Shown here piece after piece: positions 10,027-59,842 of a DNA stretch of 59,842 nt. The notes below the pieces were generated by a model. The model did no database searches, was not told the DNA's origin, and saw only the letters and a list, made by a program, of their open reading frames with translations. The DNA comes from a virus (taxonomy: Duplodnaviria > Caudoviricetes), in the IMG/VR virus record IMGVR_UViG_3300030109_000604, positions 1 to 59,842 of that record; one strand, 5' to 3'. Every line of letters starts with the position of its first letter. Position 1 is the first letter of the stretch. Both the position numbers and the translations under genes were made by a program.

Positions 10027-10449
10027 TCATTTCGACCCCCAATCTTCTAAACCGTCGCCATAGCCGTCTGGACCGTACTCGCCTAAGTCGCGATCATCAC
10101 GCTGTTGCTCATACTCTTCTTGATATTCGTCCCAATTTCTAGCCAACTGAAACTCAAAACCCGTTCGGCTTTCGAGCCTGTCAATCTCTGCACGCGCCTC
10201 ATCCTCAGTCGGTGCATGGACCTCAACAAATCTTGCCAAATCGTATACCCATAGCGTGTCGGGTAGCGTTTCGGGTAGCGTTTCGGGTAGCGTTTCGGGT
10301 TCCTCATCCAGAGAATTTTCTTCCACAGAAATTATCTCGTATTCCCTGAACATCTCGCGGATTTGTTCTTCGCTATAGGCGTGGATGTAAAGATGCTTCT
10401 TTGCTCCATGGAAAGATTCGTCTTGCGTCCTAACGTAATACCTTTTCAT
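10027..10449 (-). CDS. acidic hypothetical protein with (E/D)TLP repeats
   Basis: ATG 10449 overlaps the upstream stop; contains a 12-bp tandem repeat. Confidence 0.6.
   Translation of the reverse strand: MKRYYVRTQDESFHGAKKHLYIHAYSEEQIREMFREYEIISVEENSLDEEPETLPETLPETLPDTLWVYDLARFVEVHAPTEDEARAEIDRLESRTGFEFQLARNWDEYQEEYEQQRDDRDLGEYGPDGYGDGLEDWGSK
10249..10300. repeat. 12-bp tandem repeat (GGGTAGCGTTTC x3 plus a degenerate copy)
   Basis: Direct reading; encodes PETL repeats. Confidence 0.9.
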
Positions 10450-10631
10450 TGGCGTTGTTCCTTGTTCTGGACTGCTCCGTAACAATCGGGCAGTTGGGTT
10501 TGACGAACCGGGTGACCGGTCTTGGATTCATAGAGGTAACACCACGCCAAATACCTCTGGCCCTTGGTGTACAGGTGGGGGTTAGCGGCTACGTGAATAG
10601 CCGCCTCCCGCCAGTTGCTTTCCACGCTCAT
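10446..10631 (-). CDS. hypothetical protein
   Basis: ATGA overlaps at both ends. Confidence 0.6.
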   Translation of the reverse strand: MSVESNWREAAIHVAANPHLYTKGQRYLAWCYLYESKTGHPVRQTQLPDCYGAVQNKEQRQ

Positions 10632-11632
10632 AACTGTTTCATCATGTTGCGGGCGATGCGGTTTCTCAGTAGGGAGTAGGCACGCTTTGCGCTGGTGCCT
10701 GTACCGTGCATCTTATTGGGGTTCACGTAGTCACCCGTGAAAGCGAGGTATCGTTTCACAGGCTCGAACGAACGGTTGTCATACGAGGTCGTACCGTCAC
10801 GGCCATACGTCTCAAGCGCATGAAAGCACACGATCTTGATCCCGTGATCAGTCGGTTCCCCGTCGATCTCAGTCATCACGTCCTCTGCTGCGAGGACAAG
10901 GTACTGATAGGTTGATCCACCGGTTGCCTTTTCTGAAACCTTTTCGAGAAACGGTGGCCTCAAACCGTGGCCCTCATTAAACGTATCACCTTTCTGAGCC
11001 GATAAATCTTTCCAATTTATCAGCCGATTGCCAAACAGGGGCATAACGTGGGTGAAGAAATTAGAAGTGACTTGGACTTGAACTCTAGATTCGGAGCCGT
11101 ACTTTTCGTGGTCAAAAGCAAACGCCGGGCGGTCCCCCATGGGGAAGCCTGTTTTTGAAAGGCCAGACGAGTCCTCTGAGGTCGGGAAGTCTATTGCTGA
11201 ATCCGAACCGATGCCAGCCATCGTGAAGCTATTAAACTTCACTCGGTCCCGCCACTTGCCCAACGTACAGTTGCGGATCATACGCATGCGCTTTTCCCAG
11301 CGTCCAAGAAACGTGCGGAACACTGGCTCAAGATGCACACCCCGGCGTGTCTGATTGATGGTGGTGTGGAAACGAGATTGGCGGCGATAATGCCTGATCA
11401 TCTGGTGATAACCGGACAAGGCCTTGTCGAATTCCTGCAACTCGAAATCGCCGCTGATCTTTTCGAGGTAGCTGCGTGCGGTGTACGTTCTCAGGTCATC
11501 GTCAGAGTCGAGGATGGAGTCGCCATCTGGCATTGGCGCAAACGGACTTACCTTTCTGGTGGAGTGCTCCTGAATAAACAGGCACAAGGCATCCAGACCA
11601 GCCTTGTTCTTTTGATATTCATTGTAATCCAT
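10628..11632 (-). CDS. hypothetical early protein
   Basis: Long ORF; start reassigned to ATG 11632, downstream of the VWA stop and a GCAA-loop hairpin. Confidence 0.65.
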   Translation of the reverse strand: MDYNEYQKNKAGLDALCLFIQEHSTRKVSPFAPMPDGDSILDSDDDLRTYTARSYLEKISGDFELQEFDKALSGYHQMIRHYRRQSRFHTTINQTRRGVHLEPVFRTFLGRWEKRMRMIRNCTLGKWRDRVKFNSFTMAGIGSDSAIDFPTSEDSSGLSKTGFPMGDRPAFAFDHEKYGSESRVQVQVTSNFFTHVMPLFGNRLINWKDLSAQKGDTFNEGHGLRPPFLEKVSEKATGGSTYQYLVLAAEDVMTEIDGEPTDHGIKIVCFHALETYGRDGTTSYDNRSFEPVKRYLAFTGDYVNPNKMHGTGTSAKRAYSLLRNRIARNMMKQL

Positions 11633-11672
11633 GGTGATAATACGGGGAGCCTTGCGGCCCCCCGCTCCCTGT

Positions 11673-12965
11673 TTAGTTGAGGTGAATGGTCTTGCCGAAA
11701 TCGGCGGTGCGAGAGGTGGTCGATACCCAAAGCACCGGATAGTCTGGCTCATCAGGCATCGAACATTCGAGGTCGGTCAGATAGATAAACGAGTCGACCT
11801 CGATTTCGTTCTCATAAACGTAATCGAATGGCGGTCGGAAGTCGGTACCGCCGCCGCCGTACCGGCCAAGGTCTTGCTGATCAATCGAGGCCGGGTCATC
11901 GTACTCGTCAACGTGGGCGATGCGCGTGTCGCAATAGATCACGGTGACCTGTTCGGCGTCCACGTCCTGGCATACTGACTTGGCCTCCGACATCAATGCA
12001 GCATACTCATCTTGAGATACGCTGGCGCTGGTATCGACGGCGATCACGATATGACCGACGCCCTCACGTATGCGGCGCGGCGCAAAGATACCGCGCTGTA
12101 CCCATTTCTTGTCGGCACGCCGCCAATCGTAGCGGTGGTCGGAACCCTTACCCAGAAAACGGGCAAGCTCGTGACGCCAATCAACCTTGGCGTCACGCAG
12201 ATCGTCAACGTATGCGGCAAGGGAACCGGGCAATTTGCCTTGTGCCTTGGCGATCTGCGCAGCGTTTTGAACGTCAGCCATAAGCTCCCGCTCCATCGCC
12301 GCAATCTCTTGGGCATCAAGGGGTTCGCCATCGTCACCTTCAGCGTCGATCACAACGCCGGTTCCGGTATCGTCGGCGAAAGGATCACCGCCGCCACCTT
12401 GCGGGGCATCGTCATCATCACCGCCGCCCGTGTCGCTATCATCACCGCCACCTTGCGGGGTATCATCGTCACCGCCGCCCGGCTGGGGTGATGTGGGTTG
12501 CTCCTGAGCAAGCTCGTCGGCCAGAATCTCAGTTGAATATTCAGACCGGTCACGCTTCAGATCACCGACGGCGCTCCAATCAAGGGCACTGGCGGGTAAC
12601 GACTTGCTATCCTTGCGCAGCAAGTCGTTGATGATCACGTCACCGCAGATATTCCATAACTTGGGGTCACGAGAACCGCGCCGCAGGTGGTGGAAAAATA
12701 TCTTGTGATAAACCTCGTGAGCAAGAACGGCTTGCACCTCGTGATCCGATAGGGTCAGCGCAAAGTCGGGATTGATATAAAGACTCTTGCCGTCGGTTGC
12801 CATGGTCGGCAACGTGTCCGTCCAAACGGTCGGCATTTGGATCAACATTGCAGCCGTGAACGGGTCCGACATTTGCAGTTTGATCTTGGCACGGGTGACG
12901 TGCCGCACCGCCTCAGCAGACGGATCGACAACCCCATCATTTAATTGTGATACAAGTGAACTCAT
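11673..12965 (-). CDS. DUF2201-type metallopeptidase plus VWA domain protein
   Basis: TMATDG, HEVYH (HExxH), acidic Gly linker, MIDAS DTSAS, GGGTDF.P.F, YLTD. Confidence 0.9.
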   Translation of the reverse strand: MSSLVSQLNDGVVDPSAEAVRHVTRAKIKLQMSDPFTAAMLIQMPTVWTDTLPTMATDGKSLYINPDFALTLSDHEVQAVLAHEVYHKIFFHHLRRGSRDPKLWNICGDVIINDLLRKDSKSLPASALDWSAVGDLKRDRSEYSTEILADELAQEQPTSPQPGGGDDDTPQGGGDDSDTGGGDDDDAPQGGGGDPFADDTGTGVVIDAEGDDGEPLDAQEIAAMERELMADVQNAAQIAKAQGKLPGSLAAYVDDLRDAKVDWRHELARFLGKGSDHRYDWRRADKKWVQRGIFAPRRIREGVGHIVIAVDTSASVSQDEYAALMSEAKSVCQDVDAEQVTVIYCDTRIAHVDEYDDPASIDQQDLGRYGGGGTDFRPPFDYVYENEIEVDSFIYLTDLECSMPDEPDYPVLWVSTTSRTADFGKTIHLN

Positions 12966-12967
12966 TT

Positions 12968-13876
12968 TCAACCTCCAAAAAAACCAGCAAGGCGGTCGGT
13001 GATTTCCGACGCCTCAGATTGCACAATCTTGACCACCTCAGCATTTGAGGGGTTTTTGAACTCCGCAACATCGTGACGGAGCAATTCGCTGCCCTTGATA
13101 TCATCGACAAGGGCCGCAAGGTCAGGGTCACCGGCAACATTCAGCGCCGGTAAGATGTTCACGAGGTCACCAAGATTGGTGATCATCGTGTCGTAAAGGC
13201 GGCGGTTCGCCTCCGTCTTTTTCTTGCCGCCAGCCTTGCGAACTTCCACAGACTCGTATCCGTCCAAGCATGTGGCGATATGCGAGACCGCCTTGTGCAA
13301 CCGCTCGAACGTGTGACGGGTAGCACTTCGCAACAAGTCGGCGTTGTCGTCGTCGATTTCCGCCCGTATCTGCGCGGCCTTGTCGTCGACAATCTTGGCA
13401 TAGAAGTTAGCGCCGGTCGGCACGTCCCGCGCCCGCCATTTGAATTCATACATGGATTCAAGATCGGCGTAGCGTAGGTAGTCATCCTCCCGAAACATGC
13501 CGTTGAGTTGCTTGCGGCGCTGTTCGATTAGCTGGGGAAGTTTCCCGGCCAAGTCGGAGACGGCGGTATTAAACCGCCGCTTGTGATCATCCATGGTGGT
13601 CATGTACTTATCGAAAAGCTCAACGGGTAACAGGCGATAGGTGCCATCCCATGGGAGGGTCAACCGCTCGTGGTCACCGCGTGCCGCACGTGCCGCACGC
13701 TGCGGCCCATCCACCATGCGCGGATCAAGTAGGTGCTTGTCATACTTGCCAGCGTTGTGCGAAGCGGCATGCTCCGCGTTGATCTTGTCGGTCACGTCCC
13801 GATCCTTGCGCGTGAACCCGGCGCAATTGATCTGCAATGTGATAAGCATCGCGTTTTCTTGAAGAATATTTTCCAT
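12968..13876 (-). CDS. DUF3150-like helical protein
   Basis: K.LL...TLPW...RLLP...F...Y...LN...DP.L pattern; sits between the AAA and VWA genes. Confidence 0.7.
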   Translation of the reverse strand: MENILQENAMLITLQINCAGFTRKDRDVTDKINAEHAASHNAGKYDKHLLDPRMVDGPQRAARAARGDHERLTLPWDGTYRLLPVELFDKYMTTMDDHKRRFNTAVSDLAGKLPQLIEQRRKQLNGMFREDDYLRYADLESMYEFKWRARDVPTGANFYAKIVDDKAAQIRAEIDDDNADLLRSATRHTFERLHKAVSHIATCLDGYESVEVRKAGGKKKTEANRRLYDTMITNLGDLVNILPALNVAGDPDLAALVDDIKGSELLRHDVAEFKNPSNAEVVKIVQSEASEITDRLAGFFGG

Positions 13877-13880
13877 GTTC

Positions 13881-14930
13881 TCAGCCCTCCCCGATGAGGT
13901 TAGATGTTTCGATCAGGATGTCGGTAAATCCTGTCGTTGATACTTTCTTGCCCGGATCACCAGCGGCCTCGTTCCGACGTAACAGCGCGGAAACAGCAAC
14001 CGAATGATACTCAGGCGGCAAGCGCTTGATATAGGCGGCGCATGCCTTGGCGGTTTTGTTGGTGACGGAGGCAATCAAGCTCCCGATCATGGCGTACCGC
14101 ACGTCGGCTTTCTCAGGTACCGGTGCCGCATCAGGGTTAGCGAACACCTCAGATGGTGCCACAAGGTCACGCCAAATGCGCAGGAACCCGGTGAACTTCG
14201 CTTGCTCACCAACACCGATTGCACCGGCAATCATTGGCATTTCGATTGCCTTAGGCACCTCAGCCTTGATCACGTCGGACACTGCGACCCATGTACGAGG
14301 GCAGGGGAACGGCGTGCCGTCGGCAGCATGGCGGTGTAGCGCATCAGGAAACTGGCTCAGGTACGTGGTGACCTCAGGTGCTACGTCGATCTTGGCAAAG
14401 TGTGCCAGCGTCGGATCAAGCTCCGCCTCAACGGTCACAATGTTGAACCGGGAAACCAAATGCTCAGGTATCGACTTAACCGCCGCCTTGTCCGACTTGC
14501 GGTTGCCGTTGGCAATGATCAGGCAATCCTCAGGGAGACGGTGACCAGCTACACGCCGATCCCATATGACCTGAGCGCTAGCCTTTTGAACGTCGATATC
14601 ACACTGGGGGAATTCCTCAAATATGATCAGCGACTTGGAACCGGCCTTGGCGGCGTCGATCACGTTGCGGCCCCAAACGGGTAGCAATTGATCCATGGCG
14701 TCACCGACTTGGGTGACCCAGCCAGTGACCTCAGCCGGTTGATAGTTTGAAAGGTTGACCACCTCGACATGCCAGCCCTCATCACGGGCGACTTGAACCG
14801 GCGCTTGCGACTTGCCGACGCCAACGGGACCCAAGATCAGGAGCGGGAAACCGTCAACGCGCTCAGACTGAATCGCCATAGCGGCGCGAATGTAGGCGGG
14901 TACGTTTGCAATACTGATAATGTTTTCCAT
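13881..14930 (-). CDS. MoxR-like AAA+ ATPase
   Basis: Walker A GPVGVGKS, Walker B IIFEEF, ANGNR, LVSRF, PCPRTW; start at ATG 14930 after SD GAGGA. Confidence 0.9.
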   Translation of the reverse strand: MENIISIANVPAYIRAAMAIQSERVDGFPLLILGPVGVGKSQAPVQVARDEGWHVEVVNLSNYQPAEVTGWVTQVGDAMDQLLPVWGRNVIDAAKAGSKSLIIFEEFPQCDIDVQKASAQVIWDRRVAGHRLPEDCLIIANGNRKSDKAAVKSIPEHLVSRFNIVTVEAELDPTLAHFAKIDVAPEVTTYLSQFPDALHRHAADGTPFPCPRTWVAVSDVIKAEVPKAIEMPMIAGAIGVGEQAKFTGFLRIWRDLVAPSEVFANPDAAPVPEKADVRYAMIGSLIASVTNKTAKACAAYIKRLPPEYHSVAVSALLRRNEAAGDPGKKVSTTGFTDILIETSNLIGEG

Positions 14931-14942
14931 GATATCCTCATA

Positions 14943-14997
14943 AGCGTTTCGGCGGTGCTGCCGCCTCATCAGTGCCCTAGCAACAAGGGCAGACACT
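14943..14997 (-). ncRNA. type III hammerhead ribozyme
   Basis: Minus strand: AGUGUC^UGCCCU(UGUUGCU)AGGGCA CUGAUGA GGCGG(CAGCA)CCGCC GAAACGCU; full core, three stems, GUC cleavage triplet. Confidence 0.92.
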
Positions 14998-15000
14998 ACT

Positions 15001-15200
15001 TGTTCAAACGGGGCCGGTTATTCTTTCCCACCGTAAGGGCTACTTTGTGCAGGCTACCGGGGCTTTAGGCTTGGGCGTTATTCGCCTCATCGTTACCGGA
15101 TCAAAGCCATCGTTCACAAAGCATCGCTAGGCTTGCTAGGCCTGAGTTTCACGGTTAGCTGGAACCTCCTGATCAAAATTTGCGACCTCGTTGCCGCAGG
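15001..15200 (-). ncRNA. candidate structured leader/ncRNA
   Basis: Nested helices ACCGUGA/UUACGGU, UGCUUUGUG/CACAAAGUA, GGCUUUG/UAAAGCC, GGCG/CGCC and 5' hairpin UGCGGC/GUCGCA; no convincing ORF. Confidence 0.55.
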
Positions 15201-15201
15201 C

Positions 15202-15232
15202 ATCTTATGGCAGATTGTAATCTTCTTTGCAA
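15202..15232 (-). promoter_or_regulatory. putative promoter of the leader/AAA operon with an operator-like palindrome
   Basis: TTGCAA followed by CATAAG at 17 bp or TAAGAT at 19 bp; AGATT-AC-AATCT inverted repeat in the spacer. Confidence 0.45.
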
Positions 15233-15461
15233 CCCCTTTATTCAGGAATGTTCCATATTATTTGGGGTCACTATTCCCAGCCTTCTAGCCGGTCACTTGA
15301 TAGGTGACGTATGGCAGCGGGAAACCTTACAGCATGATCTATTCTGCTGAGTCTTTATATATAGGGTCCACACAAGGGGTATCTGAGGGGTCCGGTACAG
15401 CCTAGCCTAGCCGTTAACATGCTCTAAGAAGAATGTCCTTGACATTGGAAAAGTGTAACAA

Positions 15462-15523
15462 GATCAAGCACTTAGGTACCCACAAAAGAAGTGTGGTCTT
15501 ATTTAGCCTGTAAGTCATTGATA
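15462..15523. promoter_or_regulatory. two inverted IHF-consensus sites
   Basis: gATCAAGCACTTA (15462-15474, 1 mismatch) and TATCAATGACTTA on minus (15511-15523, perfect WATCAANNNNTTR). Confidence 0.55.
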
Positions 15524-15645
15524 TTAAAGGCGGAATCCTGATAGGCCCAAGTCGGAGGCCTCTGGTGGGGTAGGTGCTGAGAACCTCTAATCATGCTCTA
15601 TGGGGCTTAAAATGGACGACAGAGCGTCAAGCACAAAAGCGCCAT

Positions 15646-15672
15646 TGTGGATAACTTTCTGTGGATAACTTT
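15646..15672. promoter_or_regulatory. tandem perfect DnaA boxes
   Basis: TGTGGATAACTTT twice (15646, 15660); TGTGGATAA is the reverse complement of TTATCCACA. Confidence 0.65.
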
Positions 15673-15797
15673 TGGAGGCCAGAATATTGAAGGGGACCGC
15701 TCCGCAGCATATGGTTCGCCGGTTTAGCGAAAACCCTTTTCGCCATTTGGCGCTCCATGCTATAGGGGAGCGGTACACAATAGAGGGGTGTAAGGGT

Positions 15798-18904: not shown

Positions 18905-20401
18905 ATGCAGACTCTAGCTGCCCTTCAGTCTCAGATAAGCCAACTGCCCTATCACGAGCAGTGTGAACTCTTAGAACTGATGGAGAAGCTGGAGACAGCA
19001 AAGACACGGGAAGCAAGCCAGACGGACTTTCTTGCATTTGTCAAAGCAGTATGGCCTGCCTTCATTGAGGGCAAACACCACAAGACAATGGCTGAAGCCT
19101 TTGAGCGCGTAGCCGAAGGCAAGCTAAAACGCTTGATCGTCAATATGCCTCCTCGACATACAAAGTCTGAGTTTGCTTCCTACCTGTTACCCGCTTGGTT
19201 CTTAGGGAAGACGCCGGAAAAGAAAGTTATCCAGACAGCGCATACCGCAGAATTAGCTGTAGGCTTTGGACGTAAGGTTCGTAACCTGTTTGGCGATCAG
19301 AGCTTCAAGGATATTTTTCCCGGCTCGCAGTTGCAGTCGGACAGTAAAGCAGCGGGACGCTGGAACACCAACAAAGGTGGTGAGTATTTTGCTATCGGTG
19401 TTGGTGGTGCGGTTACCGGTAAAGGCGCAGATGTTCTGATCATTGACGATCCTCACTCAGAACAGGATGCGGCCCAAGGGCAGTATCATCCTGAAGTCTT
19501 TGACCGTGTGTATGAGTGGTACACATCCGGTCCTCGCCAGCGACTACAGCCCGGAGGGGCCATCATCGTGGTGATGACCCGCTGGAGTAAGCGGGACCTG
19601 ACCGGGAAGATTATAGATAACTCTGTGAAGCGGGCAGGTTCTGATGAGTGGGAGGTGATTGAACTCCCGGCCATTATGCCCTCAGGTAATCCGCTGTGGC
19701 CCGAATACTGGGGCATTAAAGAGTTAGAGGCCTTGCGCTCAGAACTTCCGTTATCGAAGTGGTCAGCGCAGTATCAGCAAGATCCAACCTCAGAAGAGGG
19801 AGCGCTGATTAAGAGGGAGTGGTGGCAGGAGTGGAAGGGCAAGCACCCGCCTCCCTGCGAGTTTGTTATTCAAAGCTGGGACACGGCGTTTCTTAAAACG
19901 GAAAGGTCGGACTACTCAGCTTGCACAACGTGGGGCGTTTTCTTTAATGAGGAAGAAGACGCTATGCACATTATTCTTTTGGATGCTTTTAAGGAGCGCA
20001 TGGAGTTTCCAGAGCTTAAGAAGCGTGCATACGAGATGTGGCAGGAAGTTGAACCTGATGCGTTTCTGGTAGAAGGTAAGGCCTCCGGGATGCCTTTGGT
20101 GTTTGAACTTCGACAGATGGGAATACCTGTGTCGGAGTATGTCCCATCAAGGGGAAACGACAAGATTGCCCGCGTAAACTCTGTGGCAGATATGTTTGCA
20201 TCGGGTATGGTCTGGGCACCGATGACACGGTGGGCTGAAGAAGTTATTGAAGAGTTTGCTGCGTTTCCCGCTGGGGATCACGATGACCTTGTGGACAGTT
20301 CAACGCAGGCTTTAATGCGATTTAGACAAGGCGGCTTCATCCGTAATCCTACTGATGAAGAAGACGAATGGATGCCACCTCGTTATGCGGAGTATTATTA
20401 A
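18905..20401 (+). CDS. terL: terminase large subunit
   Basis: NMPPRHTKS, TGKGADVLIIDDP, VMTRW, QSWDTA, FP.G.HDDLVDS. Confidence 0.97.
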   Translation: MQTLAALQSQISQLPYHEQCELLELMEKLETAKTREASQTDFLAFVKAVWPAFIEGKHHKTMAEAFERVAEGKLKRLIVNMPPRHTKSEFASYLLPAWFLGKTPEKKVIQTAHTAELAVGFGRKVRNLFGDQSFKDIFPGSQLQSDSKAAGRWNTNKGGEYFAIGVGGAVTGKGADVLIIDDPHSEQDAAQGQYHPEVFDRVYEWYTSGPRQRLQPGGAIIVVMTRWSKRDLTGKIIDNSVKRAGSDEWEVIELPAIMPSGNPLWPEYWGIKELEALRSELPLSKWSAQYQQDPTSEEGALIKREWWQEWKGKHPPPCEFVIQSWDTAFLKTERSDYSACTTWGVFFNEEEDAMHIILLDAFKERMEFPELKKRAYEMWQEVEPDAFLVEGKASGMPLVFELRQMGIPVSEYVPSRGNDKIARVNSVADMFASGMVWAPMTRWAEEVIEEFAAFPAGDHDDLVDSSTQALMRFRQGGFIRNPTDEEDEWMPPRYAEYY

Positions 20402-22866
20402 TGGCAATTGATAAGGCCCTATCAGGATCGGGAACGCCGATGGAAGAGGGCGATGCTGTAGAGATTGAGATCGTCAATCCCGAGGCAATGTCTATACAAA
20501 CGCCAGATGGTGGTGTGGTTATCGACTTCGATCCCGAAGCCGAAGATCTTATTGAGCATGGCTCTAATCTTGCTGAGTACATTGATGAAAGCGAATTAGG
20601 CTCTATCAAGTCTGAGCTCATGGGCGCGTTTGAGGCAGACCGGGCTTCACGCAGTGAGTGGGAAGAAACTTATATCAAGGGCCTTGATCTTTTAGGTCTA
20701 AAGATTGAAGAGCGAACAACGCCGTGGCCGGGGGCGTGCGGGGTGTTCCACCCGGTATTGTCAGAAGCGGTTATCCGTTTTCAGGCGCAGTCAATTATGG
20801 AGACGTTCCCTGCAAAGGGGCCGGTTCGCACTCAGATTATCGGAGACCTGACCGAAGAAAAAGAAGCTCAGGCTATTCGTGTTCAGACCGAGATGAACTA
20901 CCAGCTTACGGAAGGGATGCCTGACTACCGAAGCGAGCATGAGAATATGTTGTTCGCTCTGCCGCTAGCGGGGAGTGCTTTCAAAAAAGTTTACTATGAC
21001 GCCGACATGGAGCGGCCAACCGCTGTGTTTGTTCCTGCGGAAGATATGGTTGTTGCTTATGGGGCCAGCGATCTTCTGAGTTGTGGGCGCTATACCCACG
21101 TAATGAAGAAGACAAAGAACGAGGTCCGTAAGCTACAGGTTGCAGGGTTCTATAGGGATATTGATCTTGGCAACCCGTCTCCTGACTACACCAAGGTGCA
21201 GGAGCAGTACAATTCTTTGCAGGGCGAGCGGCCTGACTTTGAGTATGATGATCGTTACACGCTTCTTGAGTGTCATGTTGATTTGGATCTGGCGGGCTTT
21301 GAAGACGAGCGGGACGGAGAAGAGACCGGCATAGCATTGCCTTATGTGGTGACCATCGACAAGTCATCAGGGAAAGTGCTTTCAATCTATCGGAACTGGG
21401 AAGAGACAGACCCCGTTAAAAAGAAACTGTTACACTTCGTTCACTATAAGTATTTGCCGTCCTTGGGGTTTTATGGCTATGGGCTTATCCATTGCATCGG
21501 CGGGCTGACAAAATCTGCAACATCTATACTCCGACAGCTTGTTGATGCGGGCACTTTGTCCAACCTCCCGGCTGGCTTGAAGTCACGGGGGTTGCGGATT
21601 AAAGGTGATGACAGTCCAATCATGCCGGGCGAGTTCCGGGATGTGGATGTGCCCGGCGGCGCTATTCGGGACAACATTACCTTTATGCCCTACAAAGAAC
21701 CCAGTGGGGTTCTTTACCAGTTGCTGGGGAACATTGTAGAGGAAGGCAGAAGGTTTGCTTCGCTGGCTGATATGAAGATCAGCGACATGAACAACGAAGC
21801 CCCCGTGGGCACTACTCTTGCCATCATAGAGCGTGGCATGAAAGTTATGTCTGCGGTTCAGGCTAGGCTTCACGCGTCAATGCGCAAAGAGTTTGGTATT
21901 CTTGCCAGCTTGATTAAGACGTATCTTCCTGCGCAGTACGCCTACGAAACCGGCTCCGTAAGGGCTGAAGATTTTGATGACCGCGTAGACATCATTCCGG
22001 TGTCTGACCCGAACGCGACGACAATGGCGCAGCGGGTCATGCAGTATCAGGCCGCGTTACAGTTAGCCGCACAGGCTCCGCAAATGTACAATCTGCCTGA
22101 GCTTCATCGTCAGATGCTGATGACTATGGGGCTTCAAGACGTTGATAAGATTGTTCCTGACACTGACGACATGAAGCCGACAGACCCTGTTACAGAGAAC
22201 GAAAACATTATCAATGGCAAACCCGTCAAGGCTTTCTCGTATCAAGATCACAAGGCCCACATTACTGTTCACATGAACGCTTTGCAGGACCCCAAGATCA
22301 TGCAGCTTGTTTCTCAGTCTCCACAAGCAGGAGCTATCCAAGCCGCAGCAGAGACACACATACGCGAACACTTAGCGTTTGAGTATCGTAACGAGATTGA
22401 GCAGCAGATGGGCGTGCCGCTTCCGCCAGAAGGTGAGCCGTTACCACGAGACGTAGAAAAAGAACTGGCTATGTTGTTGGCTCAGGCTTCAACCAAGTTG
22501 CTACAAAAAGATCAGGCAGAGGCCCAACAGAAACAAGCCATGGAGCAGGCTCAAGATCCAATCGTCCAGCAGGCTCAGGAAGAGCTTAACATTCGACGGA
22601 TGGAAGTTGAACGGAAGGCTCAGGCAGACAAGATGAAAGCTGACGTGGAAATGGACAAAGCAGAAATGCTTGATGCCCGTGAGCGTGAAAGAATTGAATC
22701 TAACGAGCGTATCACTGGTGCGCAGATTGGGGCAAAGATTGCCAGCGAGGTCTTGGAGGGAGAGATCGAAGGCGTTCAACTGGCAGAAAAGGAAAAGATG
22801 GAGGGAGCTAGGCTTGGTGTCGAAATAGCCAAGGCGGTTCTAAACAATGAAGGGAGCAAAGACTAA
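20401..22866 (+). CDS. portal protein
   Basis: Follows terL; HPVLSEAVIRFQA, LPLAGSAFKKVYYD, GFYGYGLIH, DAGTLSNLP; long helical C-terminus; start ATG 20401. Confidence 0.9.
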   Translation: MAIDKALSGSGTPMEEGDAVEIEIVNPEAMSIQTPDGGVVIDFDPEAEDLIEHGSNLAEYIDESELGSIKSELMGAFEADRASRSEWEETYIKGLDLLGLKIEERTTPWPGACGVFHPVLSEAVIRFQAQSIMETFPAKGPVRTQIIGDLTEEKEAQAIRVQTEMNYQLTEGMPDYRSEHENMLFALPLAGSAFKKVYYDADMERPTAVFVPAEDMVVAYGASDLLSCGRYTHVMKKTKNEVRKLQVAGFYRDIDLGNPSPDYTKVQEQYNSLQGERPDFEYDDRYTLLECHVDLDLAGFEDERDGEETGIALPYVVTIDKSSGKVLSIYRNWEETDPVKKKLLHFVHYKYLPSLGFYGYGLIHCIGGLTKSATSILRQLVDAGTLSNLPAGLKSRGLRIKGDDSPIMPGEFRDVDVPGGAIRDNITFMPYKEPSGVLYQLLGNIVEEGRRFASLADMKISDMNNEAPVGTTLAIIERGMKVMSAVQARLHASMRKEFGILASLIKTYLPAQYAYETGSVRAEDFDDRVDIIPVSDPNATTMAQRVMQYQAALQLAAQAPQMYNLPELHRQMLMTMGLQDVDKIVPDTDDMKPTDPVTENENIINGKPVKAFSYQDHKAHITVHMNALQDPKIMQLVSQSPQAGAIQAAAETHIREHLAFEYRNEIEQQMGVPLPPEGEPLPRDVEKELAMLLAQASTKLLQKDQAEAQQKQAMEQAQDPIVQQAQEELNIRRMEVERKAQADKMKADVEMDKAEMLDARERERIESNERITGAQIGAKIASEVLEGEIEGVQLAEKEKMEGARLGVEIAKAVLNNEGSKD

Positions 22867-49272: not shown

Positions 49273-52200
49273 ATGGCACAATTATTTGAGTTTGAGGGGC
49301 AACAATATTCTTTCCCCGATGACGCAACTCAAGAAGAAATCTTTGGTTTTTTAGATCAAGCATCCCCTGCGCCAACTCCTGAGGAACCTTCCGAAAAAGG
49401 GTTTCTTGATAGAACTGGAGAGATGCTCAAGGGCGGCGCTCAAAGGTTTGCAGGGTCCAGTGCCTATGGCCTAGCGTCGGGTCTTGAATATTTTGGAGCT
49501 TCTCCAGAAACTCAAGAAGAACTAAAAACCTATGCTGCGCAACAGGAGGAGTCTCTAAAGGGCATATCTCCAATTAAACCTTTGTTAGAAGCAGAGAGCT
49601 TGGGGGATGTAGCATCTTCGGGTTATGACTATTTAGTGCAGTCAAGTCCTTACATGGGCGCAATGTTAACGGGCGCTTACGCTGGGGGCAAAGCCGCTGC
49701 CGCCCTGCCAATACCTCACCCGGCAGTTAAGGCCATTACTATGTTCGCGGGAGGATTGCTGGGGGGCGCAGCGGCAACGTATAATGCGTTCTTTGGGGAC
49801 AATGTTAAAGAAGCGGAGCAAGTTAAAGGAAGAAAGCTAACCAAAGAAGAAACAGAGGGTGCTGCGGTGGCTGCGGTAGGGCAGTCTATTGCTGATGCAG
49901 TTATATCAAAGATACTGCCGTCTAGGGGCAGTCCAAAACTAATTACAAATACGCTTAAAAAGCTAATGCAAGGTGGTGCTGTTGAGGGGACCACTGAAGT
50001 TTTTCAAGAGTCTCTTTCCATACTGCAAGCTAATGATTTTGATTTAGATTCTTTAAGGACGCCTGAGGCCACGTATCGTTTAAAAGAAGCGGGCCTAGCC
50101 GGTATGGTTATTGGAGCGCCTATTAGCGCTGCTACGGGTCCGTTTACTAGAGAGGCTCCTCCAACAGCCCCACCGGTACTTCCCGATGTTACTGAGGGTC
50201 TACAAGAAACATTAGATGTAGAGACTGAAACTACCCTTGAGGAAGATACTGCTGATGGGGAGCAGTCCGTTACAGAAGCGGATATGGCTTCCGAGGGTCA
50301 ACTGGATTTAAATTTTGCATCTGAAGAGGTTGCGCAGGACGAGGTAGAATCTGCGGTTACGCCGCCAGCGAGTGACGAGTTCGTAACTGAGCAGGTTGAG
50401 GGTGGGGTGGATGAAACAGTCGCTCCCGATGTAGGGCCTGTTGACATTGCCGGTGTATCTGATGAAGTCGTAGACGAACAGTTGCGACAAATTGTTGCAG
50501 ACCCACCCCCTGAGGGGCCTGCCGCTCCTGATCTGGGGGAGCTTGACCTAGAAGTTACGGAGCCTGTCTCTCCAGAGTTTCAGCCGAGTACATTAGAAAC
50601 ATTTCCTGTTGCTGAAGAACAATTGGAACTGTTTGATACTTCTACGATTGAGGCGCTTACTGCTTCTGCGCAGTCGGCTACTCCGAAGCTATCTATTCCT
50701 GAGCATATTGTAAAAAAGATAATTGAGAACTTGAACCGCCGCCTTCAGGCACGCGGTCTGGCCGATGACGTGTCGTTAATTATAACTGATACAATATTCC
50801 GGCCTGAGATGGGGGCAGACCCAGACTCCACACCCAGTGAAGCTAAGTACATTCCCCGTACACAGTCGGCTAAGGGCGCAATAATCTTAGCCCTTGATGC
50901 TCTCCCCGAATCCACCCTGAGGAAACCCAAAGAGATGGCAACCTATCTTGCCGGTCTCACGGATCACGAGACTGTTCACTCATGGGTGGACATTGGGGTG
51001 ATAAACGACAACGACATGCAGGCTTTGTCTAAGGCGGCGTCCCTAGCCCCGCACTGGTCTGATCCTAATAAGACAGTGATGGACGTAATAGCAGATGTGT
51101 ACCCTGATCTTGATGCTGAGGGGCAGATAGAGGAAGCGGCGGCTGAATTATTCAGGGGCCATGCGGCTGGTAACGTAGTTCTCAAGGGACGGCCCCTGTC
51201 AATATGGCAACGCATTATGAACTTCTTCAGGAATCTAAAAGGAGGCCTAGCAGAAGCTGACATATACAAGGCGGCTCAGGTCTTCGACAGGGTTGGCATG
51301 TCACCTGACTTTGTATCGGCTGCGCCCACTGCTCCCGCTGATGACTTCGGAGATGAGTTGGTTGAGGCGGTGAGTGGTAAGGATAAGTCGCTAGGCGAAA
51401 AGTTACGCGACGACAAGGAAGCTCGCTCATTTCAGGGTGGTCCCAATATGTGGAAGCCCGAACCCGGCAAGCCGTTTGGTACGCCTCAACTTAAATTTGC
51501 GGGTACTGTTGGGGGTCAAGCGCATGGTTGGGGGTTTTATAATTCTCAAGATGTAGAAGTTGGGAAAGACTTTGCAGGAAGAAGCGGCAGGGGGCAGCTT
51601 CTTGAGCTTGATATTCCAGATGATGCGATAGCTAAATTCATGGACGAAAGCCTGCCACTGAGCAAACAATCTCCGAGTGTGCAACAGGCAATCGGGCGTA
51701 TTTATGATCGCGTTTACGACCGTGGATTTAGACAGTCTATGAGGCAACTCATGGAAGGAAAAGATCCAACAGGTTTTAGAATTTATCGGGACATTGGTAC
51801 TTACGAAAAAATATCTGATAAAGAAATAAGTTTGATGTTGGCCGAAGAAGGGATTCCGGGACTTAAATATGGCGCTGATCCCCGCTTAAGTGGTAGCCCA
51901 ACACCAGAAGGTGTTGCCATGCGTCTTATAGAACTTACGGGTAGTGTTGATGGTGCCATTGCTGAGGCTCAAGCCCGTATAGCTGATGCAGAGCAGAGAG
52001 GAGTTCTTGATCGGGCTGACTCAAGGTTCAAAGTGCCTGCTGCTTTGGAGATCCTGCAAGAACGAGGTGATCCTCGTAGGTATAACTACGTGATCTGGGA
52101 TCAAGATGTTCTAAATAGAGTAGAGGTTAAAGGCGTTAATGAAGTACCGGTCAATCAGGTTGCTGTTAACCTTTCCTCTGCGACAGAGAGTATCCTTGGT

Positions 52201-55200
52201 CTCAAGGATCTACAGGATCAGGCCAACACTGGAGACATAGAAGCACAAGGACTGCTTCAAGATGTAGCTTCAGACTCTTTATCCTACTTGTTGAGCGGTA
52301 TTCCTGATGTACGTGTACTGCCCACGCCCGCACAAGGTTTGTACTTTGGTGATCTAGAGCCATCAATAGGGCTAGACGTTGGTTTCGTGCAGGATAACAA
52401 GAAAGACGTTCTTGCTTCTCTGGCTAAATTTGCCAGCAACTTCAATCAAGAACAGATTCATGTTCGCACTGGTGCTGACGAGAATACAGACGTTGGGTTT
52501 ACTTATCCTGATGGGTCCTATAATACTGCTTCAGTGCGGTTCTCTTTGCGTGAGCCTCTCACCCGCCAAGAGATTGAGGAAGTAATATCTAGCTCAGGTT
52601 TGGTGGGTGTAACTGCTACAGATACTTATTTAGATGCGTACTATGTAGGAGATCCTAGTGATGCAGCCGCCATCCAACAATTCAAACAAGCCGCAGACCG
52701 AGCCTCAAAATCTCTTGAAGGACGCACTAGCGGAGTTGACCCAGCAATTCAAAGACTCTGGGCATACGGTGAGGGATATGGAGCCACCAACCCGTACTCA
52801 GACATACGAGGCCCACTTCGTCCCCCGGAAGCGAACGAAGGGAACCGAACCAGTTGGAGAATAGGTCAGCGCCTACGTGGCCGTCCGTTTATTCCGGTTC
52901 CTTCTCAGCAGACCTTAACCCCTGAGCAGCGCGATCTTCAGTCTGAGATAGCTGATGCGTTTGATGATATGCCCCTTAATGATCTGGGCAATCCAGACGT
53001 GCGCAGAGCCTATGATGAACTGGCGCGAGAGCTAGACAGTCAGTACAGAGCGCTCCCTATCAAGGTGGAAGTATTCGAGGGAGAAGGCGAGCCGTATGCA
53101 AACAGTGCGGCTATGCGAGAAGACATAAACCAGAACAATCATTTGTTTATTTATGGCACTAACGCAGACACCTTCGGCCCTGAGGGTGTGGTCTACGACA
53201 ACCATCCCATGCTTAAGCAGTCGTCATACACTGATGTAAATGGCTACCCCTTGCTTATCAACGATCTGTTGAGGGCAGTGCACGACTATTACGCGCATAC
53301 GATGGCACCAAATAAGTTTGGTCCGTTGGGCGAGGAAGCTGCATGGCAGAATCATATGAGGATGACCCGAAGCCCGTGGGCTAGATGGGCGCTTACCTCA
53401 GAAACAAGGGGCCAGAACAGTTGGGTTAATTTCCACAGGCTCGCTATTGACCCAAGTAAGCGTGCGGACTCGCTGCCAATTACGGAGCGTGAGTTCTCTG
53501 AGCAGAAGACGGCGTTGCTCCCCATAGAATACACGATGACCGGCGATCCTGTTATTGATGAAGAGATGCTCGACATAGCATCTCCCGATAAGGAAGCGCG
53601 AAACTTTCTTGTTGGCCGTTTTTACAAAAAAGAAACGATGTTCGGAGTTCAGTTCGTTAATGAAGATGGTCTTGGTTTGGTTGGAGGGGTGCCAAGTGGA
53701 AGGGCCAGCACACCGGGGACAGCAAACCTTCGTTTTGCGATTATGGATCAGAACATTAGAGGGGAGGACAACAAGCCTATTGCTCTTGGCGAGACAAAAA
53801 TAAATGTCAAGCTGGAGGATGGCGAATTAACTGAAGAGATAGAGGGCATTGTTGACATAGAAATAGAAGATGCCTACCGCAACACGGGCATCGGAAGCCG
53901 CGTAATCAACTCTTTGTTAGAGAATACCACTGACGGTCTGAACATCTACGATATTCAAGAAAGCGCATTGCCATATTGGCGGGACAAGCAGGGGACCTCA
54001 ATTGTTGAAAGAAGTTCTGCTGAGGGTGACAACCTAATTGATGGATTTATTCCGAAAGGTGCGCCTGCGCCTAGTGTGGAAAGAACGGCGGCTTCTCCTG
54101 ATAAAGAAGCGCGGCGCTTTGTTGACTTGCCTAAGGAAGCGCAGCGACTAGTCAGGACCACTGATGCTAACGGTAGGCAGACCGCTAGGTTCGGAACGAT
54201 CCAGTACAAAGGGAACAATGTCCCTGTAGTTCTACACATGGGTACACCAGAAGACTCTGGTATGCGCCATGCGGATAAACATCTTCTTAATTTTGAGACG
54301 TTCACTCCGTATGAGTCTGTTCCCATAGCGCTGAAGTCTTTGATGACGGCATCGTTCAACCCTGAGCGGCAAGCCCCCCGTAAATCTCCTGCCCTTACAT
54401 TTACAGAGGGTGGCGACAGGGGCCAAGCAGGCAAGTTTACCATTGAATGGCAGGACCCAGCATCTCGGTTCCCCATAAAGGCGGCATTTACATTACTGGA
54501 GCCAAACACAATCAGTGGGGTAGAGGTTCCTGTCTTTGCAATGGATACCATCTTTGTAAATACGGGTAGAGAAACTCCCGCTTATCAGGCAGCGGAAACC
54601 ACGATCAGACGCGAAGGCGTGATAGAGCTAGATAAGATCTCACGCCCCGGCAAAGAGGCCGTGCTAGATGCAGTCGCTAACTTCAAGCAGAAATCAAAGA
54701 AAGAAAAGTTTGCTAGGCCCATATCGCAAGAGTTCTCCATCAAGTCCACGCCTACTGATATGGGTATCGACATGCCCTCAGGTATGGTCGCGCCTCAGCA
54801 GCATGAAACCTTGGGCGAAAAGGTTCTTACTAATCTTGGCATGGTTGGCGGCAGTCCTTTAGATAGCTTCGGAGATTTCTTTAAGTGGTTCCGCACAAAC
54901 TTTGTAGATATGTGGGACCCAATCCGTCGCACTGAAGTTGGCCTGTCAGAGCAGGATGAAAAGAACCAGAATTTCCTGAGCGCATCTAGTTCAGCATGGG
55001 CGGCTATGCGAATGGCGCGTAGAGGAACTGCTGTTACAGCATACTCCCTGTCAAAAGGTGTGCCGACTTACCGTGACGGCTATACCTCGGTGAAGGATAT
55101 ACCGGAGGACGCCTTACAAACTAACATAGATGGCACAACAGAGGTCAGTCGAATAGCTGGAACCGATACGGGCTTGATCCCCATCATTGAGCCGCTGAGG

Positions 55201-59457: not shown

Positions 59458-59633
59458 CTGTCCAACTCTATCAGCCCCACACCACCACACTCTATACATA
59501 TGACCTCGAACTCTTCGATGGAGGGGAAGGCAAACCTATCGCCCGTGTGTGTAAGCCGAGTGGCTTCCACTATGACGTGGCCTTCTCCCTCACAATTGGT
59601 ACAAGTCCGTATCCGGCACCCCTCTTCGTTCAA
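59454..59633 (-). CDS. DnaJ-type zinc-finger mini-protein (not in ORF track)
   Basis: 59 aa MNEEGCRIRTCTNCEGEGH...CIECGGVGLIELDS with two CxxCxGxG motifs; TTG start overlaps the lipoprotein stop. Confidence 0.75.
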   Translation of the reverse strand: MNEEGCRIRTCTNCEGEGHVIVEATRLTHTGDRFAFPSIEEFEVICIECGGVGLIELDS

Positions 59634-59842
59634 AGCGTGTCCTTCCTAAATCTTTCTGTGTCTAGTTCTTTATAGCCTTCCTTGGCTGCGTCTCCGCTGC
59701 GCCTAGAATTTGTTCGCTGCTTGTAAAGTTGCAGCAGTTCGTTGGCCTCACCTACGGGGTAGGTCAGAAGAACATACACCCGAAAGAATGTATTGTGGGG
59801 AAGTATCTCCATCTCCTTCACGCTGTACCCTGCCACGTTCAC
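59574..59842. repeat. Terminal direct repeat, copy 2, including the 3' end of the lipoprotein gene
   Basis: Matches 1-269 at 260 of 269 positions. Confidence 0.95.

Follow-up and report, generated by a model that had tools for sequence, protein, structure and literature searches.

A conserved type III hammerhead ribozyme before the ATPase gene of an uncultured marine phage and its proposed role in trimming the 5′ leader

Hammerhead ribozymes are abundant in phage and prophage genomes, and their role there is described as still unresolved in reviews (PMC6765202; PMC13725137). The IMG/VR virus record IMGVR_UViG_3300030109_000604, from an uncultured marine phage (Duplodnaviria; Caudoviricetes), raises this question for a single copy: what does a hammerhead do when it lies directly before the ribosome-binding site (RBS) of a gene, in this case a gene for an AAA+ (MoxR-like) ATPase? 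The whole record (59,842 b; 100% complete by CheckV) was analyzed and is referred to as the window below. Sequence analysis confirmed positions 14997–14943 on the minus strand as a complete type III hammerhead ribozyme that is genuine and evolutionarily conserved, and the ribozyme is probably active. We consider it fairly probable that this is a functional element in the 5′ leader of the ATPase gene of a leftward operon, where it would trim the leader and standardize the 5′ untranslated region (UTR).

The motif (14943–14997; all positions in the motif are on the minus strand) was assigned to type III as stems I and II were found to be closed by loops and stem III to be open (6, 5, and 5 bp, respectively). 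Stem III pairs 14997–14993 (AGUGU) with 14947–14943 (ACGCU) and includes one U-G wobble. Stem I pairs 14991–14986 (UGCCCU) with 14978–14973 (AGGGCA) around the 7-nt loop 1 (UGUUGCU, 14985–14979), and stem II pairs 14965–14961 (GGCGG) with 14955–14951 (CCGCC) around loop 2 (CAGCA, 14960–14956). The catalytic core comprises C3–A9 (CUGAUGA, 14972–14966) and G12 A13 A14 (GAA, 14950–14948), the latter being invariant in all aligned sequences. Every consensus position (C3 U4 G5 A6 N7 G8 A9, G12 A13 A14, A15.1-U16.1, and H17, here C17) was present and aligned to the Rfam family RF00008. From the GUC triplet and its position relative to the core, the hammerhead rule predicts self-cleavage between 14992 (C17) and 14991 (U1.1), which is 61 nt before the A of the ATPase start codon (ATG, 14930–14928) and would leave a 5′ UTR of 61 nt. 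Four Watson-Crick pairs are possible between UGCU in loop 1 (14982–14979) and AGCA in loop 2 (14959–14956), and covariation in the wider class predicts that the two segments form a kissing-loop pseudoknot. Only 12 nt separate the end of stem III from the ATPase start codon, and this interval contains a Shine-Dalgarno (SD)-like GAGGA (14939–14935), kept as GAGG or GGAG in orthologs. An initial annotation of this DNA had described a canonical type III hammerhead with complementary loops (U first in loop 1, A last in loop 2) adjoining the RBS of the ATPase gene. Each stem, loop, and core element and the GUC were recovered on the minus strand, the covariance-model match and the conservation described below agree with them, and the predicted cut 61 nt from ATG 14930 and the GAGGA close behind stem III were found where they had been placed. 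The SD-like motif had been said to begin 5 nt after stem III; it begins at the fourth nucleotide, with 3 nt in between, a trivial difference of one base.

Searching Rfam by E-value reporting instead of the gathering cut-off detected RF00008 (Hammerhead_3) end to end at 14999–14941 (model positions 1–54; 37.3 bits; E = 1.9e-6 over 601 b). In a comparison of the whole window with all 4227 Rfam families this was the only match with E < 0.05 (E = 1.9e-4), and with RF00008 alone as query family the E-value was 4.4e-8 per genome. At gathering thresholds no Rfam family matched in the window, the 37.3 bits being lower than the gathering score of 48.5. The check with Rfam hammerhead models that the initial annotation had proposed was therefore positive at the site, though under this threshold. 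The scores of the orthologs (25.7–42.0 bits) were likewise under 48.5. This shortfall is explained by loop and stem lengths that differ from the RF00008 consensus, while every core position matches; moreover, a gathering score is a threshold of the database and not a property of a ribozyme. Neither the bare core pattern (two matches in the window vs. 1.35 expected) nor the minimum free energy (MFE) of the motif (z −0.11) was significant, and the MFE structure differed from the hammerhead fold. The weight therefore rests on the covariance-model score, conservation, and covariation.

An ATPase search gave nine loci from viral contigs and 14 from metagenome contigs, several contigs being present in both collections. 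Scanning with RF00008 showed the ribozyme at the same place in five of the eight related viral-contig loci (L002, L003, L004, L005, and L009; 36.3–42.0 bits), and no ribozyme was found upstream of the ATPase in the remaining three (L006, L007, and L008). It was likewise present in nine of the 13 metagenome loci with upstream sequence (L131–L138 and L144); the four loci in which it was not found (L139–L142) encode ATPases of 72–44% identity. An alignment of nine distinct orthologous sequences (A5) was 95.7% paired over all cells, with changes on both sides in six of 18 pairs, and none of 500 shuffles reached its covariation score; slid controls were only 32–55% paired. Stem III was paired in 100% of cells; two of its five pairs (GC/AU; UA/UG/CG) showed double changes, and the other four were found among the six pairs of stem I. 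The core was intact in all nine sequences, N7 being U or C and H17 being C or A. Individual variants were also found: GUC is replaced by GUA in L131, in which stem I has 7 bp, the second pair of stem I is changed from G-C to A-U in L138, stem II is bulged in L136, and in L134 (1407–1483) stem II contains an insertion of approximately 18–20 nt, with GCU in loop 1 and AGC in loop 2 retained. A class covariance model built from 29 members of the wider class, window included, scored 60.6 bits for L138, 55.0 for L131, 47.6 for L136, and 44.7 for L134, all of them orthologs outside the training set; RF00008 gave only 25.7 bits for L134. The class model revealed no second copy in the window and no match in the loci lacking the ribozyme.

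These data bear on whether the motif could be a chance resemblance or an inactive relic without present function. Such a view would be in line with the score below the Rfam gathering threshold, with a core pattern that by itself is common by chance, and with related phages that lack the ribozyme. It is highly improbable, however, considering the E-value for the whole window, the core intact in nine of nine orthologs, the compensatory changes in stems I and III that span ATPase identities down to 76%, and natural variants that keep the fold (the GUA of L131, the stem II insertion of L134, and the G-C to A-U change of L138).

The window ribozyme can be assigned to a large phage type III class with a covarying contact between loops 1 and 2. 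Viral contigs were scanned with a pattern derived from the window (GUCUG...CACUGANGAG...CGAAAC), which matched at least 118 stretches; the class counts given below for viral contigs were made among the matches listed. All three stems could be formed in 98 of 127 pattern matches, giving 69 unique cores, whereas the same three-stem filter was passed by only 37 of 114 pattern matches in bacterial and archaeal genomes, a lower rate, as would be expected if chance matches make up more of the hits in this far larger collection. Loop 1 began with U in 40 and loop 2 ended with A in 60 of the 69 cores, and in 42 of them the length of stem I exceeded that of stem II by 2 bp. In a large subclass, loop 1 comprises 7 nt, begins with U, and ends in GCU, GCC, CCC, or ACC, combined with a loop 2 ending in AGCA, GGCA, GGGA, or GGUA, respectively. 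Twenty-nine members were chosen by eye for this loop type and aligned, resulting in 93.5% pairing, which none of 500 shuffles reached, and in 11 pairs changed on both sides. All cells of stem I were paired, one stem II pair covaried (CG 14, GC 10, AU 5), and so did the loop-loop pairs (UA 14, CG 12, UG 1; GC 23, CG 2, AU 1, GU 1). In the set that had not been picked by eye, at least three Watson-Crick pairs between the loops were possible for 32 of 62 unique loop pairs, compared to a mean of 12.1 and a maximum of 23 in 1000 re-pairings.

Natural hammerheads that cleave fast depend on a tertiary contact between loops 1 and 2, and loop contacts of the kind seen here have precedents. According to Dufour et al. 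(PMC2632901), natural hammerheads share a pair between a 5′ U of loop 1 and a 3′ A of loop 2, and the loops of the window (UGUUGCU/CAGCA) fit the CChMVd-type motif of that report, in which loop 1 is a heptanucleotide that starts with U and finishes with a pyrimidine, and the last base of loop 2 is A. The motif described there belongs to viroid ribozymes serving rolling-circle RNA replication; the phage class differs in adding three covarying Watson-Crick pairs between the loops. In the report of Perreault et al. (2011; PMC3088659), approximately 40% of hammerheads of all types had a pseudoknot linking stems I and II, and type III forms with a stem difference of 2 bp had one especially often. 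Phage hammerheads, their pseudoknots, and one case close to a start codon were thus already published in that work. The bacterial and prophage hammerheads described there share with the window the core, the type III topology, the phage context, and the Watson-Crick contact between loops 1 and 2. From their description, the window differs from them in a stem I–II difference of 1 bp instead of 2 (stem II having 5 bp), and in having a single ribozyme in the 5′ UTR of a first gene, unlike the several ribozymes that flank genes within a long transcript.

Besides the main loop type, a few other arrangements were observed in viral contigs. In L021, L022, and L096 the loops were found to be swapped between the stems (loop 1 AUAGCA, loop 2 UGAYGCU), a mirror arrangement that retains the contact. 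In L026 (1472–2039; same as L023) a 141-aa gene is flanked by a tandem pair of type III hammerheads whose short loops are of a different type, and the second of these ribozymes lies 24 nt before a gene for an ATPase that is 31% identical to that of the window. The same subclass as in the window was also found in the cultured bacteria Tropicibacter sp. R16_0 (L288), Ruegeria sp. 6PALISEP08 (L300), and Pedobacter chitinilyticus (L303), each copy being located 15–26 nt before an open reading frame (ORF), and in Pedobacter the loops covary (ACCU/AGGU).

Placement relative to genes was compared in 67 non-identical class contexts with at least 600 nt of downstream sequence, including the window and two relatives. 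In 63 of them the start codon of an ORF of at least 50 aa was found no more than 40 nt past stem III, while random positions on the same strand gave a mean of 26.6 of 67 and a maximum of 36 in 200 trials. The distance from stem III to the start codon had a median of 17 nt (quartiles 12–24), and an SD-like motif was present in between in 37 of the 63 contexts. As the downstream proteins fell into 49 clusters, no particular gene appears to be served. Gaps to maximal ORFs were a less clear measure, because maximal ORFs read through the ribozyme; their medians were 98 nt upstream and 30 nt downstream, with the downstream ORF being the closer one in 38 of 58 cases. In the literature searched, we found no report that quantifies how often phage hammerheads adjoin an RBS, which does not prove that there is none. 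A described precedent is the hammerhead of haloviruses HF1 and HF2 (HHphage), which according to Perreault et al. (PMC3088659) lies 13 nt before the start of a helicase gene. Both HHphage and the window ribozyme thus precede the start of a first gene by a few nucleotides (13 nt there, 12 nt here), the HHphage transcript being that of a replication module. A transcript 5′ end mapped to within 3 nt of the cut supports HHphage activity in vivo, whereas such activity is a prediction for the window ribozyme. HHphage is moreover a core variant from an archaeal virus (PMC3088659), and the window ribozyme has a fully canonical core and comes from a bacterial-type phage.

The ATPase gene (13881–14930, minus strand; phrog_1297, E = 3.6e-64; AAA_5 weak) is followed by three co-directional genes (10628–13876, minus strand) encoding products of 302, 432, and 374 aa. 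The 432-aa product contains DUF2201_N and DUF2201 (VWA-like; phrog_1314), and those of 302 and 374 aa are of unknown function. On the other side lies a divergent gene on the plus strand (15672/15687–16322; phrog_51, E = 1.9e-7). The intergenic region between the two units (14931–15686, approximately 755 nt) is divergent and contains no minus-strand ORF of 40 aa or more, and the ribozyme fills its last 55 nt on the ATPase side; its location is therefore the 5′ UTR of the gene that opens the leftward unit, and not a gap between two genes. The term AAA operon used in the initial annotation is fair for the four co-directional genes, provided that the ribozyme is taken to lie within the 5′ UTR of the first of them, at the end of a divergent region. 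ATG 14930 was considered the real ATPase start since the N-terminus (MENII...) is conserved, and since a length difference of 1 nt in the ribozyme of L003 would break any reading frame through it.

Upstream of the ribozyme, the leader that would be removed by cleavage (14998–15686, minus strand) proved to be variable. The 90–230 nt directly before the ribozyme were found to be swapped for unrelated sequence in L009/L131, L134, and L136, even in close relatives with ATPases up to 97% identical, and a DNA contig from run X3 showed a breakpoint at 14998/14999, exactly at the 5′ edge of the ribozyme. Because the upstream sequence has been replaced in all these cases while ribozyme and gene stayed together, the ribozyme travels with the gene and not with the leader. 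In the window the exchanged stretch was noted at 14999–15089. The replaced cassette of L131 was observed to be bracketed by a long-range inverted repeat of 13 bp.

Part of the leader is nevertheless conserved, and the main job of the ribozyme could be to set the 3′ end of a structured non-coding leader RNA, with the ATPase mRNA as a by-product. We regard this as unlikely. The proximal part of approximately 175 nt (15000–15175, minus strand) is conserved in the window, L002, L003, L004, and L138, and RNAalifold predicted 29 pairs in it, four with changes in both partners; the G-U variants are compatible with the ribozyme strand only, and leader insertions in L002 and L003 fall in predicted loops and are themselves hairpins. 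This structure was derived from the same five sequences, however, which represent two lineages only. The folding energy was unexceptional (z +0.89 both for 141 nt and for 700 nt), and the ribozyme was kept in L009/L131, L134, and L136, in which the proximal leader is swapped. Identification of the leader as a known RNA was rejected as there was no match to any Rfam family and no tRNA or tmRNA. A pattern scan for further leader homologs returned only contigs already known and one chance match (L129). Approximately 190 nt upstream of the ribozyme, at 15181–15198 (minus strand), a terminator-like hairpin followed by AAAUUUUGA was observed; L131 retains this hairpin, and L004 has an altered form of it.

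Conservation of the distal half of the intergenic region extends over the window, L131, and L134 and, in part, L004, and includes lineages with a different proximal part, a point in favor of a leader RNA with a function of its own. Two perfect copies of the 9-mer TTATCCACA, which we take to be the DnaA-box consensus, were found here at 15646–15654 and 15660–15668 (minus strand), 14 nt apart, and are the only perfect copies in the window. They are part of the direct repeat AAGTTATCCACA, which is identical in L131 and L134 and closely precedes the SD of the plus-strand gene starting at approximately 15687. A TTGAC...TTTTAAGCC block and a TATATATAAAG block are also present in this conserved part. 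The repeat region may be an origin or a DnaA-controlled promoter, and the conserved distal blocks may be DNA signals (promoters, an origin with DnaA boxes) instead of parts of an RNA. No phage promoter repeats common to the leader were found.

Hammerhead self-cleavage depends on Mg2+, and a cut after C17 would leave a 2′,3′-cyclic phosphate on the leader and a 5′-OH on the mRNA. In the reading that we prefer, leader trimming and standardization of the 5′ UTR, transcripts starting somewhere in the divergent region of approximately 755 nt would fold into the three-way junction, aided by the kissing contact between loops 1 and 2, and would self-cleave after C17 (14992). The long leader, different from one relative to another, would depart with the cyclic phosphate, and it should dissociate since stem III is only 5 bp long. 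The cut would free the 3′ strand of stem III, whose end is 3 nt before the SD. What the mRNA would keep is a fixed 5′ UTR of 61 nt with a 5′-OH and with U1.1 paired within the stem I hairpin, and according to the predicted fold a single-stranded GAAACGCUUAU run would lead from the ribozyme remainder to the SD. Regardless of the upstream sequence, the ATPase mRNA would in this way receive the same 5′ end, the same stability, and the same access for ribosomes. The sequences show the motif with its conservation and covariation, its linkage to the gene, and the recurrent position of the class just ahead of start codons; that the site is transcribed, that the RNA cleaves in vivo, and that stability and translation are affected are steps that we infer. 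The initial annotation had suggested that a 5′-OH, hairpin-capped end resists RNase E and may tune translation, which would be reasonable on general grounds, the former for hosts with RNase E.

Such a role would work like that of the engineered RiboJ-type insulators, in which a hammerhead is placed between the promoter or leader and the RBS and gives all transcripts the same short 5′ UTR (PMC7536230). Ribozyme insulators are reported to equalize 5′ UTRs originating from different start sites and to raise stability, with uncleaved mRNA decaying faster (PMC7536230). RiboJ also shows differences: it is reported to have been engineered from a plant satellite-RNA ribozyme with an added hairpin of 23 nt, whereas the phage element is natural and lacks an added hairpin, and its insulating effect is only proposed. 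Leader trimming and 5′-UTR standardization was considered the best reading because of the linkage to the gene across leader swaps, the placement of the class before start codons, and this engineered analog.

Several observations weigh against this reading, in addition to the Rfam score below the gathering threshold described above. Sister lineages with 71–72% identical ATPases (L006, L007, L139, and L140) and more distant ones have no ribozyme, and it is therefore dispensable for the operon. A further 80, more distant ATPase relatives were screened, and a hammerhead of the class was found nearby in only four loci (three lineages), as counted with a model that detects only type III forms of this class. 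A general association between this ATPase and hammerheads was rejected on this count, the ribozyme of L186 lying approximately 850 nt upstream. A sigma-70 scan revealed no minus-strand promoter upstream of the ribozyme. Only one record came from an RNA library, in a search that gave three sequencing runs, each represented by contigs only: a contig of 151 nt (14824–14974; depth 2) that does not cross the cut, has no end there, and could be carried-over DNA. Predicted accessibility from SD to AUG was 0.43 at every leader length tried in partition-function folding, and unmasking of the SD by cleavage was rejected as receiving no support from thermodynamic folding. In hosts with RNase J, moreover, a 5′-OH end can promote decay, as is the case for the glmS ribozyme.

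The last point touches on a different possibility, namely that cleavage lowers or gates expression, either because the 5′-OH and the loss of the leader mark the mRNA for decay, or because ribosome binding competes with folding of the ribozyme and thus sets the level or timing of expression. With the SD only 3 nt past stem III, a 30S subunit of the footprint that we assume would reach into the 3′ strand of stem III and the core GAA, and the tight spacing is typical of the class, as shown by the median of 17 nt to the start codon. On the other hand, the 5′ nucleotide of the product is paired in a 6-bp hairpin in the predicted fold, which should make attack by 5′ exonucleases difficult, the canonical core together with the stabilizing loop contact suggests a fast and constitutive cutter, and no ligand-binding or switch element was evident. 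A 2019 review leaves mRNA processing into products of differing stability or translation efficiency as a possibility, put forward as a suggestion needing work (PMC6765202). On balance, expression control of this kind seems improbable to us for the window.

A broader proposal can be put forward tentatively. Kissing-loop type III hammerheads of phages may in general be RBS-adjacent, and cleavage may license translation from a standardized 5′ end; in the window it might additionally free a possibly structured leader from the origin-like region. With a median of 17 nt between the 3′ strand of stem III and the start codon, the RNA could not accommodate an initiating ribosome as long as the ribozyme is intact. 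If true, cleavage-licensed translation would be a natural counterpart of the synthetic ribozyme insulators.

The window ribozyme is a good new example of the well-known phage ribozymes and not a new kind, and it leaves the knowledge of ribozymes as such unchanged. It is a clean case: a single ribozyme with a canonical core, at a fixed distance of 61 nt from cut to start codon, for which natural leader-swap variants are available. These features of the locus, together with the class-wide proximity to start codons, make 5′-UTR standardization and cleavage-licensed translation directly testable, and the locus should be useful as a test case. As cultured carriers of the same subclass were found, such testing need not await the uncultured phage.

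Concerning the remainder of the genome, no DNA similarity of the window to cultured phages was found, and a protein search against cultured phages gave only matches of no more than 32% identity, to ATPases of N4-like phages. N4-like phages also carry the ATPase next to a metallopeptidase/VWA gene (up to 32% identity), and no hammerhead of the window's class was detected in two N4-like ATPase loci that were scanned. The plus-strand genes starting from 15672/15687 include genes for a weakly TerS-like protein, for TerL (18905–20401), for the portal protein (20368–22866), and for structural proteins. A plus-strand ORF of 2782 aa (49273–57621) had its only matches in PHROG families of unknown function. 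In view of the N4-like ATPase/VWA pair, its product might be a virion RNA polymerase or else a large ejection protein. A terminal direct repeat of 269 nt (97% identity) is present at 1–269 and 59574–59842, as would be expected of a complete genome; the record itself, however, carries the class "linear, no end repeats". Finally, the 12-nt unit TAGCGTTTCGGG was found in four tandem copies at 10252–10299, within the minus-strand ORF 10027–10485.

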